A stretch of 58,425 bases of DNA from a virus (taxonomy: Duplodnaviria > Caudoviricetes), in IMG/VR virus record IMGVR_UViG_3300030376_003371, positions 1 to 58,425 of that record. The stretch is one strand, 5' to 3'. Under the pieces are notes generated by a model that worked only from the letters and a program-made list of their open reading frames with translations, ran no database searches and was not told the origin of the DNA. How positions within the stretch are numbered: position 1 is the first letter of the stretch; each line of letters begins with the position of its first letter. Made by a program: the position numbers and the translations under genes. Positions 40,630 through 45,316 of this stretch are shown here, in pieces.

Positions 40630-42228
40630 TTAATTTTTCTTTCTATGCATCGTAATGATTGCATTGGTTGATAATAATGTAACTGCTACGCTAACTGCAT
40701 TTTGTAAAGCGGACCTTGTTACTTTCACCGGGTCTATAACTCCCATCTTTATTAAATCTCCCCACTCTTCATTCTTTACATCTAATCCCTCACCCCATTT
40801 TCGGTCAGGATTCTTTTCATACAAGTAAACGTCCATTCCTGCGTTACGCAGTATTTGAACTAACGGAGCTTGTAACGCATTTCCTAAAATTGCGTAAGCA
40901 ATTTTTTTTGTTGAATTTTTGTCACACTCTTTAGACTTGTCTAAATATTCCTCGCCTATTGTAAACAATGACAATCCTCCCCCGGGGAGTATGCCTTCTT
41001 CTAGAGCTGACTTAACTGCACATACTGCATCGTCAACTCTATCGTATAGTTCTTTTTGTTCGAGGTCTGTATTACCTCCAACATAGATTACTCCTATACC
41101 TCCTGTAAGGGAAGCGATTCTTTTTTCTATAAAGCTTCTCAGCTGTTTATCTTTAGCTGCACTATGTTGAACCCATAACTCTTCTACTCTTGTATCTACT
41201 GCATCTTGATTTTCTGTAGCATCATCCTTAATGATGATACTTGAGTCACGACCAACTATCACCTTGGAACAATGACCCAAGTCACCAAAGTTTATCAAGC
41301 TCAAATCATCTCCGGTTTCGCCACTAAAGTAAGTAGCTCCAACTGCAAGAGCAATGTCGTTCATAAGTTCATGTTGTCTATAACCAAAGTCAGGTGGTGC
41401 AATGTTTACAATCTTAAGACTGTTCTTCATTACATTCGCTGCCATTGTGTTAATGAATCCTTGAGAGCATGGAGCAATAATCAATAACTTCTTTTGTTCA
41501 TTGATAATTGTTTTCAATACATTCTCAATTTGTAATATACTATTTATTTCGGTATCACATACAAGCACATGCACATCCTCATGTATACATTCGTCATGCT
41601 TATGGTTATTAATAAACAAGTGTGATGTCCACCCTCTATCTATCTTAATACCCTTTGTGCTTTCGTAATACGTCTCATGGGTTTTGGATTTCTCCACAGT
41701 CACTATCCCATCTTTACCAACTTCTTTATATACATCAGCTATTTGTTTTCCAATCTTCTCATCGTTGTTGGCTGAGATAACTGCAACATCTTTTAATTTA
41801 TTACCTGCTATCTTTTTACCTTTCTTGTGAAGCTGACTAATAATAGATTGAGATTCTTCCTGTAGTATTTTTAATACCTCAGTATTGTTGGTCTCCTCAT
41901 CTATTAATTCCATACCGGCTTTGACTAAAGCTTCGGTAAGTACAATTGCTGTTGTCGTTCCATCTCCTGCTGAGGTTGCAGTCTTATCAGCTGCTTCCTT
42001 CATGATACGAACCGCTAGGTTCTCCACAGCGTCTAAAAGAAAAATAGACTTAGCCACAGTCACACCATCCTTGGTTACTGTGATTCCATGTGTATGTTCT
42101 TGAGATTCAATGAGGACTGTATTTCCTCGGGGACCCAATGTAGACTTTACTGCCTTAGCTATTTGTGTTATACCGCTAAGTAACTTTTCTCTACCATCGG
42201 AATCGAAGTGTAGTTGTTTTGGATTCAT
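40630..42228 (-). CDS. groEL: Chaperonin GroEL
   Basis: TLGPRG, TKDGVTVAK, AGDGTTTA, DRVDDAVCAVKSALEEGILPGGG, GVIDPVKV; no GGM tail. Confidence 0.97.
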   Translation of the reverse strand: MNPKQLHFDSDGREKLLSGITQIAKAVKSTLGPRGNTVLIESQEHTHGITVTKDGVTVAKSIFLLDAVENLAVRIMKEAADKTATSAGDGTTTAIVLTEALVKAGMELIDEETNNTEVLKILQEESQSIISQLHKKGKKIAGNKLKDVAVISANNDEKIGKQIADVYKEVGKDGIVTVEKSKTHETYYESTKGIKIDRGWTSHLFINNHKHDECIHEDVHVLVCDTEINSILQIENVLKTIINEQKKLLIIAPCSQGFINTMAANVMKNSLKIVNIAPPDFGYRQHELMNDIALAVGATYFSGETGDDLSLINFGDLGHCSKVIVGRDSSIIIKDDATENQDAVDTRVEELWVQHSAAKDKQLRSFIEKRIASLTGGIGVIYVGGNTDLEQKELYDRVDDAVCAVKSALEEGILPGGGLSLFTIGEEYLDKSKECDKNSTKKIAYAILGNALQAPLVQILRNAGMDVYLYEKNPDRKWGEGLDVKNEEWGDLIKMGVIDPVKVTRSALQNAVSVAVTLLSTNAIITMHRKKN

Positions 42229-42254
42229 TTTAAATTTAATTAGATTATACTTAG

Positions 42255-42262
42255 CAAATATA
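42255..42262 (-). promoter_or_regulatory. Bacteroidota -7 promoter element for groEL
   Basis: TATATTTG upstream of 42228. Confidence 0.65.
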
Positions 42263-42286
42263 AAAAAATAATTTTTAATATGAATA

Positions 42287-42473
42287 TGTTGAGATGTCGA
42301 CTTTTTATCTCCCTTACTCTCTCTCTCTTATTATACACATGAATATTTTATTTCCATATACGAGGCTTTAAACTTAACATAGTTAACATTTTATAATTAA
42401 CATATTGATTATCAATTAGTTACAAAACTAAAGTCAACATAAAGTTAACATAAAGTCAACATAAGGATAACAT
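42287..42473. other. Origin-like element, copy 1 (11-bp iterons plus IHF-consensus sites)
   Basis: AAAGTCAACAT/AAAGTTAACAT/AAAGTCAACAT/AAGGATAACAT at 42430-42473; WATCARNNNNTTR on both strands at 42398-42422; core shared with 51536-51690. Confidence 0.6.
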
Positions 42474-42477
42474 ATAT

Positions 42478-42512
42478 AAAAAGAAAAGAGGCTACCAAGT
42501 GGTAACCTCTCT
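42478..42512 (-). terminator. Probable intrinsic terminator
   Basis: AGAGGTTACC-ACTT-GGTAGCCTCT followed by TTTCTTTTT on the minus strand. Confidence 0.7.
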
Positions 42513-42571
42513 TTATATGGTTAGTCAAAACACTACTAAAAACTAACCTAACACAAACTACTCGCTATAGT

Positions 42572-42772
42572 CTATCTTTTAAATAAGTCAATGTTAGCTT
42601 GGGATAACTCATTACCCTCTGCTATCATTTGAACCTTTTCATATCTTTTTGCGGAAGCTCTCATTTGAGCTAACTTAGTAATTCCCATCTCAGGTGATGG
42701 TGCCATATTAATAAGTCTTCCGTCTTTTACTTCATAACCTTGCATTGAAGGTGGAATATTAAATCGTCTCAT
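42572..42772 (-). CDS. Hypothetical protein
   Basis: 66 aa with its own TATCTTTG promoter (42795-42802) and terminator. Confidence 0.7.
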   Translation of the reverse strand: MRRFNIPPSMQGYEVKDGRLINMAPSPEMGITKLAQMRASAKRYEKVQMIAEGNELSQANIDLFKR

Positions 42773-43156
42773 AGTATTATCTTTTGTTCACCTACAAAGA
42801 TAGTAAAATTTTATTTAGATACTCAGGGCATTTGGGTTATATATAGCGACACGCAACCCGACCCCCTCAGGAAAACGATATTTTTTTTGTTTGACCTTGA
42901 CATTTTCAAAATCGCATGTCTGATTTTTTTGCCTTTTTTTTTATGGGGTACCCTACCCCCTCTGTTAGTTGTAGTATTTTCTCCCTGTATACGTTACACC
43001 ACCATTCACCCCCTGTTGACCTCTGTCCTTCCCTCCGTTAGACCTTCCCCTAACCCACGCATGAACTGAACAAAAGTTTTAAAGAAGACCTTCCCTTCGT
43101 TAGTACCTGTATGAAGTCATTTGACCTAAAACAAAACTACATAATCTCACATAATT

Positions 43157-43181
43157 TAATTCATTGATAATCAGCGAGTTA
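43157..43181. promoter_or_regulatory. Double IHF-consensus site upstream of the early promoter
   Basis: AATCAGCGAGTTA (+) and TATCAATGAATTA (-) both match WATCARNNNNTTR. Confidence 0.5.
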
Positions 43182-43287
43182 AAAAGAAAATAACAAAATA
43201 ATTAAAAAAAAGTTTGGTAGTTAAATATATTTAGACGAGATTTGTTAAAAATTTAATAATTATTTAAACATTTAAACACTTACAATT

Positions 43288-43473
43288 ATGACACATTTAA
43301 ACACAAACGCAGTAACTGATAACACAATCACAAACAAGGCACAAGAGCAATTCCTTCTTGAAGACATAGTAGAGAGAGATTTTGCTTTAGGACTGATAAC
43401 TGAAGACGAGTACGAAGTAGAGATACAGAAAATCTACTATAGCTTTGCAGATTTATACGGATTTCCTGCGTAA
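43288..43473 (+). CDS. First early gene, small acidic protein
   Basis: 61 aa; leader TAAACACTTACAATTATG. Confidence 0.75.
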   Translation: MTHLNTNAVTDNTITNKAQEQFLLEDIVERDFALGLITEDEYEVEIQKIYYSFADLYGFPA

Positions 43474-43496
43474 ATCAAACAGGGGTCTTTGACCCC

Positions 43497-43546
43497 TCTG
43501 TCCAAGGGAATGTCCCTTGCTGATGAGACGAAGAAGTCGAAACAGA
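43497..43546 (+). ncRNA. Type III hammerhead ribozyme (HH1), predicted cleavage after C43502
   Basis: UCU-GUC, stem I CAAGGG/CCCUUG, CUGAUGA, stem II GAC/GUC, GAAA, CAGA closing stem III; complete canonical core. Confidence 0.92.
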
Positions 43547-43574
43547 AAATAATATATATATAAACACTACAATT

Positions 43575-43718
43575 ATGAAATCAATTTTAAACTTTAACAT
43601 CGTTGAAAAAGCAATCATGTTCACTCTAACGTCACTTGTGGCAGTAAGTTGGACAATGTTAGTCTTCCATATGTTAACAGAAGGAATTGTTGCATCCTCA
43701 TTCGGTATTTACGGATAA
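43575..43718 (+). CDS. Small membrane peptide (47 aa) between the two hammerheads, not in the ORF track
   Basis: MKSILNFNIVEKAIMFTLTSLVAVSWTMLVFHMLTEGIVASSFGIYG; leader TAAACACTACAATTATG nearly identical to that of 43288. Confidence 0.8.
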   Translation: MKSILNFNIVEKAIMFTLTSLVAVSWTMLVFHMLTEGIVASSFGIYG

Positions 43719-43724
43719 ATCAAC

Positions 43725-43752
43725 AGAACCTGAGCAAGTTCTTAAACTGCTT
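43725..43752 (+). ncRNA. Predicted H-type pseudoknot directly 5' of HH2
   Basis: Stem 1 AGAAC/GUUCU, stem 2 GAGCA/UGCUU, linker UAAAC. Confidence 0.6.
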
Positions 43753-43801
43753 CTGTCGTAAGGTGTGTACCTTACCTGATGAAGCAAAAGCAGAAACAGA
43801 A
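43751..43801 (+). ncRNA. Type III hammerhead ribozyme (HH2, variant stem II), predicted cleavage after C43757
   Basis: UUCU-GUC, stem I GUAAGGU/ACCUUAC, CUGAUGA, A-GC-AAAA-GC-A, GAAA, CAGAA. Confidence 0.8.
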
Positions 43802-43822
43802 ACTTAAATTAAATCTTAAACA

Positions 43823-44758
43823 ATGAGTAACACAAACGCAGTCGCAAAGAAAGTAAAAGCTACACTTCTTGAAGGACTTAAAAAAGATGGCTTACAATGG
43901 TTCAAACCATGGAAATCAGGATTAAATTTTCCTATCAATAACAAATCAGGTAGAGCATACCGAGGTTTTAATACTTTCATCCTGAACGCTGAGATGAAAG
44001 AGAAAGAGTACAAGTTTAACGAATGGGATACCTTCAAGAGCATATCATCAAGAGGTGGTAAGGTCAACAAAGGTGAGAAAGGAACAGACGTTTATTTTTG
44101 GTTAATATCTTATACTGCCATGGGTGGTTCAGGTAAATGGTACAGAACCAAAGCCGAATGTATGAAGAATGAAAATTGTACTGAAGCAGATATATTTACT
44201 AATTTCAATCTGAGATTCTACAGAGTTTGGAACATCGCACAATGTGAAGGTTTGTCTCCAAGAAGAATAGAAGACGAGACGAAAGTTGTACACGAGCCAA
44301 TCGAAAGTTGCGAGAATATAGTATCTAACTATAAAAAGATAGCTAAGAAGTTGCAAATCGTTGAATTAGAGCAAGATAAAGCATACTATTCACCTTCGAA
44401 AGATAAGATAGTGATGCCACTAAGAAGTCAGTTTAGTAAATTAGATAAATTCTATCACACACTATTTCACGAAATGGTTCATTCAACAGGTCATGACTCA
44501 AGGTTAAATCGTGAAGGAGTTGCTACGGCAAATATGTTAAACAAGACCAAACATGATTATGCATTTGAAGAGTTAATTGCTGAGTCAGGTGCAATGATGT
44601 TGTCAGGTATGTCAGGAATTGAAACCAAAGACGAAGACAAGCAGAGTCAAGCGTATGTTAACGGATGGGTCAAAGCAGTAGAGAAAGCCAACGAGAAAGC
44701 AGTTGTATCTGCTCTAACGCAGTCAGCCAAGGCAGTTGACTACATCTTAGGAGAGTAA
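43823..44758 (+). CDS. ardC: ArdC-like antirestriction/ssDNA-binding protein with a zincin domain
   Basis: WFKPW...PINNKSGRAYRGFN...WDTF...GGKVNKGEKG...VWNIAQCEG; AYYSPSKDKIVMP; TLFHEMVHSTGH..RLNR; YAFEELIAE. Confidence 0.92.
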   Translation: MSNTNAVAKKVKATLLEGLKKDGLQWFKPWKSGLNFPINNKSGRAYRGFNTFILNAEMKEKEYKFNEWDTFKSISSRGGKVNKGEKGTDVYFWLISYTAMGGSGKWYRTKAECMKNENCTEADIFTNFNLRFYRVWNIAQCEGLSPRRIEDETKVVHEPIESCENIVSNYKKIAKKLQIVELEQDKAYYSPSKDKIVMPLRSQFSKLDKFYHTLFHEMVHSTGHDSRLNREGVATANMLNKTKHDYAFEELIAESGAMMLSGMSGIETKDEDKQSQAYVNGWVKAVEKANEKAVVSALTQSAKAVDYILGE

Positions 44759-44768
44759 TCTCCTTACC

Positions 44769-44813
44769 TTCAGGAATGGTTGCAAGGGGGTTCGATTCCC
44801 CCTCCTGAAACTA
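44769..44813 (+). ncRNA. Minimal tRNA mimic TL1 (acceptor stem plus T arm only)
   Basis: TTCAGGA/TCCTGAA 7-bp stem, 10-nt linker ATGGTTGCAA, GGGGG-TTCGATT-CCCCC, then A-CTA. Confidence 0.75.
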
Positions 44814-44835
44814 ATTTAATTTAATATATATAACT

Positions 44836-44949
44836 ATGAATGCAAAACGTTTAGGCAAGTTAGCCAAGAAAATTCAAAACATCATGTTGGTTGTGATACC
44901 ATCGTATTTTATAATCAGGATACTTGTATCCGTAATCTTTGGAGTATGA
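44836..44949 (+). CDS. Small membrane peptide (37 aa), not in the ORF track
   Basis: MNAKRLGKLAKKIQNIMLVVIPSYFIIRILVSVIFGV; ATGA overlap with the next gene. Confidence 0.7.
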   Translation: MNAKRLGKLAKKIQNIMLVVIPSYFIIRILVSVIFGV

Positions 44950-45173
44950 TATATATAATTAGCATGAAATCAATGTGGGGTAATTACAGGACGTTCCTAA
45001 AGGACTTCAATGATGAGCAACACATGAACAATTGGGTGAACCTTATGATTAGAAAAGGTCATAAGATTATAGGTGTACAACGTCAGTACATGAACATCGC
45101 AAAACATCGCAAGGAAATGCAGTTGGAACATAACCAAGCTAAAGCAAGGCGAATAAGAAAATATAATATATAA
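44946..45173 (+). CDS. Hypothetical early protein
   Basis: 75 aa, translationally coupled. Confidence 0.7.
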   Translation: MIYIISMKSMWGNYRTFLKDFNDEQHMNNWVNLMIRKGHKIIGVQRQYMNIAKHRKEMQLEHNQAKARRIRKYNI

Positions 45174-45193
45174 CTGCGAAAAACACAGAAAAA

Positions 45194-45225
45194 CTTGCAT
45201 ATGTCGAAATTTTGTCGTATGTTTG
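45194..45225 (+). promoter_or_regulatory. Bacteroidota sigma-A promoter
   Basis: CTTG ... TATGTTTG (45218-45225), about 18 nt before TL2. Confidence 0.7.
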
Positions 45226-45242
45226 TCGAAATTCTGATTAAA

Positions 45243-45316
45243 AGTAGGAGCATGGTGCAAGTAGAGGGAGTTGAAAACCCTTGAAAATTGAAGTTCGAAT
45301 CTTCATCCTACAACTA
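45243..45316 (+). ncRNA. Degenerate tRNA-like element TL2
   Basis: GTAGGA/TCCTAC acceptor, GCATGGTGC mini D-arm, GAGGG-AGTTGAAAA-CCCTT arm, TGAAG-TTCGAAT-CTTCA T arm, then A-A-CTA. Confidence 0.7.

Follow-up and report, generated by a model that had tools for sequence, protein, structure and literature searches.

Tandem type III hammerhead ribozymes of viroids and retrozymes yield circular RNAs, and the seed sequences of the Rfam family RF00008 (Hammerhead_3) are mostly those of viroids and satellite RNAs. The G10.1-C11.1 pair that closes stem II is highly conserved in hammerheads, yet it does not strictly define them. Fast hammerhead cleavage at physiological Mg2+ depends on a tertiary contact between loops I and II. 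Prophage hammerheads flank genes, and processing of long phage transcripts has been proposed as their role (Perreault et al. 2011, PMC3088659). The main text of that study also describes natural, active hammerheads with a 2-bp stem II and a U10.1-U11.1 mismatch. A role for phage hammerheads is likewise hypothesized by Weinberg et al. (2019, PMC6765202), in whose text the function is still to be defined. A·A at positions 10.1/11.1 does not appear in the main text of Perreault et al. 2011, whose Dataset S1 and Figures S6-S8 may hold examples. Our literature search for a natural A10.1·A11.1 hammerhead, or for hammerheads in phages of Flavobacteriia, found nothing relevant.

The DNA studied here, which we call the window, is a whole virus record of 58,425 bases, rated ~99% complete by CheckV. 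Judging from its genes, the genome is that of a 58.4-kb podovirus-like tailed phage with relatives among the phages of Flavobacteriia. TerL, portal and virion proteins are encoded on the minus strand and primase/helicase genes on the plus strand; TerL is 45% identical to that of Flavobacterium phage elemo and related to those of Cellulophaga, Tenacibaculum and Maribacter phages. A blastn search of positions 42300-45300 against deposited phages gave no match. The minus-strand block begins with a Cpn60/GroEL-type chaperonin gene (40630-42228, minus strand; PF00118, 2.8e-56). The adjoining divergent intergenic region (42229-43287, ~1 kb) carries iteron-like direct repeats at 42373-42472, including TAAAGTYAACA repeats with 11-nt spacing (42429-42472), and more TTAACAT copies lie at 42367-42404; these repeats could be origin or regulator-binding sites. 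On the plus strand, the intergenic region is followed in order by the features below, where R1 denotes a covariance model of the hammerhead family described further on.

43288-43473, plus strand: gene1, 61 aa, without a family match; first gene of the plus-strand block
43481-43497, plus strand: 7-bp GC-rich hairpin that abuts HH1 stem III and would end the upstream cleavage product at its 3′ side
43495-43548, plus strand: HH1, type III hammerhead (Rfam Hammerhead_3, 35.3 bits; R1, 51.4 bits)
43575-43718, plus strand: orf47, small hydrophobic ORF of 47 aa between HH1 and HH2
43751-43801, plus strand: HH2, type III hammerhead (from sequence; R1, 60.6 bits, E 3e-13; covariation in 21 relatives)
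43823-44758, plus strand: ardC-like gene, 311 aa (Pfam PF08401, 1.6e-20; PF18818, 2.2e-27)

Cleavage by HH1 is predicted after C43502. Its stem I has 7 bp, and its stem II, GAC-GAAGAA-GUC, carries the canonical G10.1-C11.1 pair. In a contig of a ~95% identical relative (run X3), stem II of HH1 shows a compensatory change, A43528C with T43537G, the two being partners of one pair. The hairpin at 43481-43497 was considered as an intrinsic terminator and rejected: it scores as terminator-like on the minus strand only, and on the plus strand it lacks a following U-tract. Gene1, with which the block opens, is conserved directly upstream of the hammerhead-ardC unit in relatives. The small ORF, orf47, is not found at the corresponding position there; a similar 40-aa ORF lies in one relative (L199, 4118-4240) without flanking hammerheads, and 7 of the 11 listed in-ORF differences from the X3 relative contig fall at third codon positions (counted by hand). 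The gene downstream of HH2 has the domain make-up of an ArdC-like anti-restriction protein, its predicted product combining an ArdC N-terminal domain (PF08401, 74 bits) with a zincin-like metallopeptidase domain (PF18818, 96.1 bits), both above the cut-offs. The ArdC N-terminal domain binds single-stranded DNA.

An earlier note on this DNA had described a second type III hammerhead at 43751-43801, and that description proves accurate to the base. The plus-strand sequence of HH2, TTCTGT-C/GTAAGGT-GTGT-ACCTTAC-CTGATGA-A-GC-AAAA-GC-A-GAA-ACAGAA (the slash marks the predicted cleavage site), divides into the following elements.

43751-56 with 43796-801, plus strand: stem III, 6 bp, including A15.1-U16.1
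43757/43758, plus strand: C17 and the predicted cleavage site
43758-64 with 43769-75, plus strand: stem I, 7 bp, with a GUGU loop at 43765-68
43776-82, plus strand: core strand CUGAUGA
43783-92, plus strand: stem II, A-GC-AAAA-GC-A (A43783, G84-C85, loop AAAA 86-89, G90-C91, A92)
43793-95, plus strand: G12-A14 (GAA)

Three helices of 7, 2 and 6 bp (stems I, II and III) thus surround the core with type III connectivity. The conserved core nucleotides C3-U4-G5-A6-N7-G8-A9 and G12-A13-A14 are all present and align with the core columns of R1. The A15.1-U16.1 pair is formed by A43796 and U43756, and position 17 is C43757, that is, non-G. As the earlier note had stated, HH2 has the topology and the UCUGUC...GAAACAGAAA frame of HH1, and its stem I differs in sequence from that of HH1 and still pairs over 7 bp. 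The description of stem II holds equally: A43783 and A43792 occupy positions 10.1 and 11.1 in place of the G10.1-C11.1 (R-Y) pair, and the A·A mismatch, two Watson-Crick pairs and the tetraloop take up 10 nt in all. Most family members have a stem II that is longer by one base-pair layer, with a stem I of the same length as in HH2. The element lies 22 nt before the start codon of ardC.

HH2 resembles the phage and prophage hammerheads in the main text of Perreault et al. (2011, PMC3088659) in its intact core, in the occurrence of several copies per genome beside single genes or small blocks of genes, in a stem II that is often 2 bp long and in a tolerated 10.1/11.1 mismatch. Unlike the U·U cases described there, HH2 has an A·A mismatch, which comes together with a stem of 2 bp plus a tetraloop. 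RF00008 and HH2 have the same topology (open stem III), core and cleavage-site rule; they differ in that HH2 has no match to this model at E<=10, and the canonical-stem-II hammerheads in 15 loci searched score 39-44 bits, below the gathering score of 48.5. The tandem hammerheads of viroids and retrozymes resemble the window in having two direct type III copies with matching stem III that flank a short RNA, here 255 nt. In contrast to them, the window belongs to a DNA phage, the flanked RNA holds a small ORF, and adjacent family hammerheads are no more cross-compatible than random pairs among the matches listed. Circularization throughout the family accordingly finds no support: chimeric stem III averages 3.69 bp in the 94 adjacent pairs among the matches listed, against 3.47 bp in random and 5.86 bp in native combinations. 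The spacing of 255 nt between the HH1 and HH2 cleavage sites is the smallest of those 94 pairs.

The pattern CTGATGA-N4-30-GAAAC occurs four times in the window, where chance predicts 0.33 occurrences; a count of four was reached by 0 of 100 shuffles. At the gathering threshold, Rfam finds neither HH1 nor HH2 in the whole window; a permissive search of 701 nt (E<=10) reports HH1 only, at 35.3 bits. We scanned IMG/VR with a loop I/core pattern that is unbiased for stem II (TGTGTRYY-N4-CTGATGA-N6-16-GAAAC) and obtained at least 119 stretches. These gave 108 well-formed unique type III hammerheads, with re-matched AGC-N4-GCA loci left out of the count. Every second one of the 108 (54 sequences) entered the covariance model R1, which excludes both the window sequence and the AGC-N4-GCA stem II. 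Over all 58,425 bases with filters off, R1 gives HH2 60.6 bits (E 3e-13) and HH1 51.4 bits (E 7e-11). The third-best match reaches only 11 bits, and the window holds exactly two matches to the family. The pattern excess over shuffles, together with R1 scores far above the third match, rules out chance for HH2. Across loci, R1 has 164 matches in 100, several of them with two to five, among the matches listed. A blastn search with the 55-nt HH2 returned only short, chance-level matches inside genes. These comparisons confirm HH2, at the level of sequence, as a genuine second hammerhead motif upstream of ardC in a marine phage. Since intergenic hammerheads of phages were already described in 2011, finding HH2 as such is unsurprising.

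The unusual stem II recurs widely. The earlier note had proposed a search of relatives for CTGATGAAGC-N4-GCAGAAAC and had reckoned with a decayed copy if the variant was inactive and not conserved. In IMG/VR this pattern returned 85 stretches, which were sorted by script. Type III hammerheads account for 33 of the 85 (21 unique sequences), with a GUGU loop I as in HH2. The script assigned another 43 to type I (stem I open, the other two closed), a number that falls to ~40 once L001 and L037 (chance-like) and L066 (truncated) are set aside, and 9 apparently lie inside coding sequences. Counted by eye, the 21 unique type III sequences have ~11 differing stem I sequences, all of which pair. Their loop II is mostly GAAA; AAAA, as in HH2, occurs in L007, L035 and L079. 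An alignment of 25 sequences combined HH1 and HH2 with the 21 unique type III relatives and two canonical ones. Pairing holds in 89% of its cells, and both partners have changed in 10 of 16 pairs. Covariation scores 0.446 versus 0.162 for shuffled alignments (0 of 500 reach 0.446), and slid-partner controls stay at or below 0.066. Since stem II is fixed by the search pattern, the covariation backs stems I and III only. Among the 120 matches listed in a cellular-genome control, there were 0 type III, 3 type I-like and 117 other sequences, which indicates that the hammerhead use of AGC-N4-GCA belongs to viruses and does not come with the pattern itself. The variant is thus conserved, which goes against the decayed copy that the earlier note had reckoned with.

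The compact module of A·A, 2 bp and a tetraloop is therefore recurrent, conserved and almost exclusively viral, and it serves type I as well as type III hammerheads. An Rfam search at E<=0.1 on 15 of the 85 AGC-N4-GCA loci reported none of their AGC-GNRA-GCA hammerheads; it did report two hammerheads with canonical stem II, whose scores of 44.1 and 39.4 bits fall short of the gathering score. Because the compact stem II escaped the Rfam models in all tested cases, annotation pipelines would miss these ribozymes.

To place the A·A mismatch among its relatives, we classified positions 10.1/11.1 in the 108 unique type III members among the matches listed. The largest classes are G-C (48) and U·U (38), followed by an extra U after A9 and then G-C or G-U (12), A·A (6), an extra A after A9 (3) and C·U (1). 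A-U, U-A and C-G are absent from the 108 listed, and a census of 195 unique parsable type III members (IMG/VR loci L001-L207, among the matches listed) adds only one G-U. The six A·A members of the 108 have 3 further base pairs in stem II. Among 37 bystander hammerheads, which lie in the same loci outside the ascertainment pattern, 21 are U·U, 13 G-C, 2 carry the U insert and 1 combines A·A with 2 bp. The U·U members, the commonest non-canonical class, resemble HH2 in the GUGU loop I, the NAAA loop II, stem III and the position upstream of a start codon; they differ in having 3-4 further stem II pairs and mostly A17, which none of the A·A members has. By this comparison, A10.1·A11.1 with 2 bp and a tetraloop is one of several apparently interchangeable stem II solutions (G-C, U·U, A·A, and an extra U or A after A9), and as such it extends the published U·U exception at 10.1/11.1. 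The freedom that this phage family shows among G-C, U·U and A·A at the most conserved helix-closing pair constrains models of the role of positions 10.1/11.1.

The traits of the census match what is expected of active hammerheads, as far as sequence can tell. Position 17 is never G in the 195 members, N7 varies (U 168, C 17, A 8, G 2), and both loops are conserved in sequence, loop I being GUGU in 158/195 and loop II AAAA in 105/195 or GAAA in 60/195. An ATG lies within 40 nt downstream in 187/195. For the 40 nt that would end the upstream cleavage product, the mean folding energy in the family is -11.6 kcal/mol versus -5.2 kcal/mol in control segments, and 61% of these segments reach -8 kcal/mol or lower versus 17% of controls (Mann-Whitney p 4e-17). 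The corresponding segments of the window fold to -11.3 kcal/mol for HH1 and -7.6 kcal/mol, a weak hairpin, for HH2. With kinship ignored, the 10.1/11.1 class tracks nucleotide 17 in the 195-member census: U·U goes with A17 in 66/77 and G-C with C17 in 56/66, while A·A members have C17 in 19/26, U17 in 7/26 and A17 in 0/26. Shared descent or structural coupling could account for this link.

The position of HH2 is also shared. Nine IMG/VR loci encode ArdC relatives of 39-78% identity, and in five of them (L199, L200, L201, L202 and L205) a hammerhead found by R1 ends 16-27 nt before the ardC start. The other four have none directly upstream of ardC: in L203 a hammerhead lies just downstream of the gene, and R1 finds none at the ardC loci L204, L206 and L207. 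A hammerhead upstream of this early anti-restriction gene is thus positionally conserved in 5 of 9 ArdC relatives. At the ardC-upstream site, stem II is canonical in L199, carries a U insert in L200, is HH1-like in L201 and L205 and has U·U in L202. This variety at an orthologous site indicates that stem II types replace each other over short evolutionary distances. The window differs from these relatives in its extra small ORF between two hammerheads, in keeping with the published picture of hammerheads beside variable genes.

We consider it likely, at a probability of about 70%, that HH2 belongs, as a working ribozyme, to a large family of intergenic type III hammerheads of marine and aquatic tailed phages and processes an early polycistronic mRNA. 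The motif, its family membership, the covariation, the conservation of the variant and the position upstream of ardC are directly supported by the data above. The divergent intergenic region would presumably drive a polycistronic RNA that runs through gene1, HH1, orf47, HH2 and ardC and onward. HH2 would cleave this RNA after C43757 and leave the upstream product with a 2′,3′-cyclic phosphate. The ardC mRNA would then start with a 5′-OH and the ribozyme body (stem I hairpin, core and stem II), and an A/U-rich leader of ~20 nt would separate this body from the AUG of ardC. Such cleavage would make the stability and translation of ardC independent of the upstream genes. No run recorded as RNA contains 43250-44800. 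Among the contigs of runs X1-X3, low-depth pieces of relatives that as contigs do not display RNA ends, none starts or stops at 43502/43503 or 43757/43758. The suggestion in the earlier note that HH2 sets the 5′ end of the ardC mRNA fits this position, 22 nt before the start codon and matched by a hammerhead in five of the nine ArdC-encoding relatives, with cleavage itself being a prediction. The processing role agrees with the proposals in the texts of Perreault et al. (2011, PMC3088659) and Weinberg et al. (2019, PMC6765202).

The earlier note had also viewed HH2 as an attenuated or conditional ribozyme on account of its stem II. In this case, cleavage would be slow or bound to certain conditions and processing would be partial, owing to the A·A mismatch, the 2-bp stem II and/or a competing hairpin. 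The hairpin in question is the minimum-free-energy fold of the region and is specific to this window:

43748-43786, plus strand: extended hairpin that competes with the hammerhead fold

In the predicted fold, UGCUUC.GUC pairs with GAU-GAAGCA around stem I, so that the 5′ flank and C17 would be paired with GAUGAAGCA and C17 and the CUGAUGA core sequestered. The nearest-neighbor model gives this hairpin an advantage of 4.1 kcal/mol over the hammerhead fold, and none of the other type III sequences with AGC-N4-GCA, 22 in all with HH2, shows so large a gap. The hairpin could form before the 3′ strand of stem III has been transcribed. The mismatch may contribute as well: U·U was the most active of all 10.1/11.1 mispairs in earlier mutagenesis cited in the main text of Perreault et al. 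(2011, PMC3088659), which implies a weaker A·A that would be expected to act more slowly in minimal constructs. Against attenuation by stem II, the variant is conserved across many phages and in both type I and type III topology, and canonical and variant stem II alternate at the orthologous ardC-upstream site. The competing hairpin is not conserved among the relatives with AGC-N4-GCA stem II, and because the hammerhead fold is the minimum-free-energy structure in 12 of these 21, attenuation through the hairpin would be peculiar to this genome. Even in the contig of the ~95% identical relative, T43752C would, by inspection, weaken the hairpin. Attenuation by the variant stem II is thus not supported, the window-specific hairpin being the only other hint, and we regard an attenuated or conditional HH2 as unlikely.

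Far less probable is decay, with HH2 as an inactive copy that derives from HH1 or an ancestral hammerhead. Such a copy could be suspected from the non-canonical 10.1/11.1 positions, the lack of an Rfam match and the weak upstream hairpin (-7.6 kcal/mol). However, all core nucleotides, A15.1-U16.1 and C17 are intact, the independent family model ranks HH2 above HH1 (60.6 vs 51.4 bits), and 21 unique type III relatives combine the same stem II with stems that covary.

The hammerheads might also serve mainly as short homologies at the DNA level, through which phages exchange gene cassettes, with RNA cleavage being secondary. The gene order points in this direction, since relatives have gene1-HH-ardC and the window has gene1-HH1-orf47-HH2-ardC. 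The 5′ flank and 3′ strand of HH1 recur in the only hammerhead of L199, which looks as though a cassette had entered a hammerhead or the DNA next to it. Which genes the hammerheads flank varies, both in the loci of this family and in the main text of Perreault et al. (2011, PMC3088659). However, the compensatory changes in stems I and III, the absence of G at position 17 and the free N7 show selection on the RNA fold and not on DNA identity. We consider a mainly DNA-level function very improbable, although roles in DNA exchange and in RNA cleavage are not mutually exclusive.

Finally, HH1 and HH2 might together excise a 255-nt RNA (43503-43757) with the whole of orf47, to be joined into a circular, exonuclease-resistant mini-mRNA, which would be a viroid- or retrozyme-like RNA circle from a DNA phage. 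HH1 and HH2 have stem III in common, so the ends of the excised RNA could meet: a chimeric stem III of 6 bp (HH2 5′ strand with HH1 3′ strand) would align the 5′-OH and 2′,3′-cyclic-phosphate ends, hammerhead reversal or a host RtcB-type ligase would join them, and the short A·A stem II might tune the balance between cleavage and ligation. We give this scenario next to no credence. Chimeric stems of at least 6 bp, the length read for the window's own, occur in about 9% of random pairs. Circular or spliced products were undetected in the cases examined by Perreault et al. (2011, PMC3088659, main text).

Processing by family members such as HH2 could be studied in a cultured phage. The deposited genome MW202828.1 (TerL 74% identical) has no R1 match. 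The Flavobacterium phage vB_FspP_elemoF_6-3D carries an unannotated type III hammerhead (NC_055853.1, 17864-17922, minus strand; locus L210; R1, 40.6 bits), directly upstream of gp59 at a divergent gene junction. As this phage is in culture and carries a family member, the function of phage hammerheads could be tested there. Type I hammerheads with an AGC-GAAA-GCA stem II lie ~60-90 nt upstream of tRNA genes in three of the loci found with the stem II pattern (L004, 1290-1451; L005, 948-1119; L041, 904-1075). Their placement suggests ribozyme-made tRNA 5′ leaders or precursor processing.
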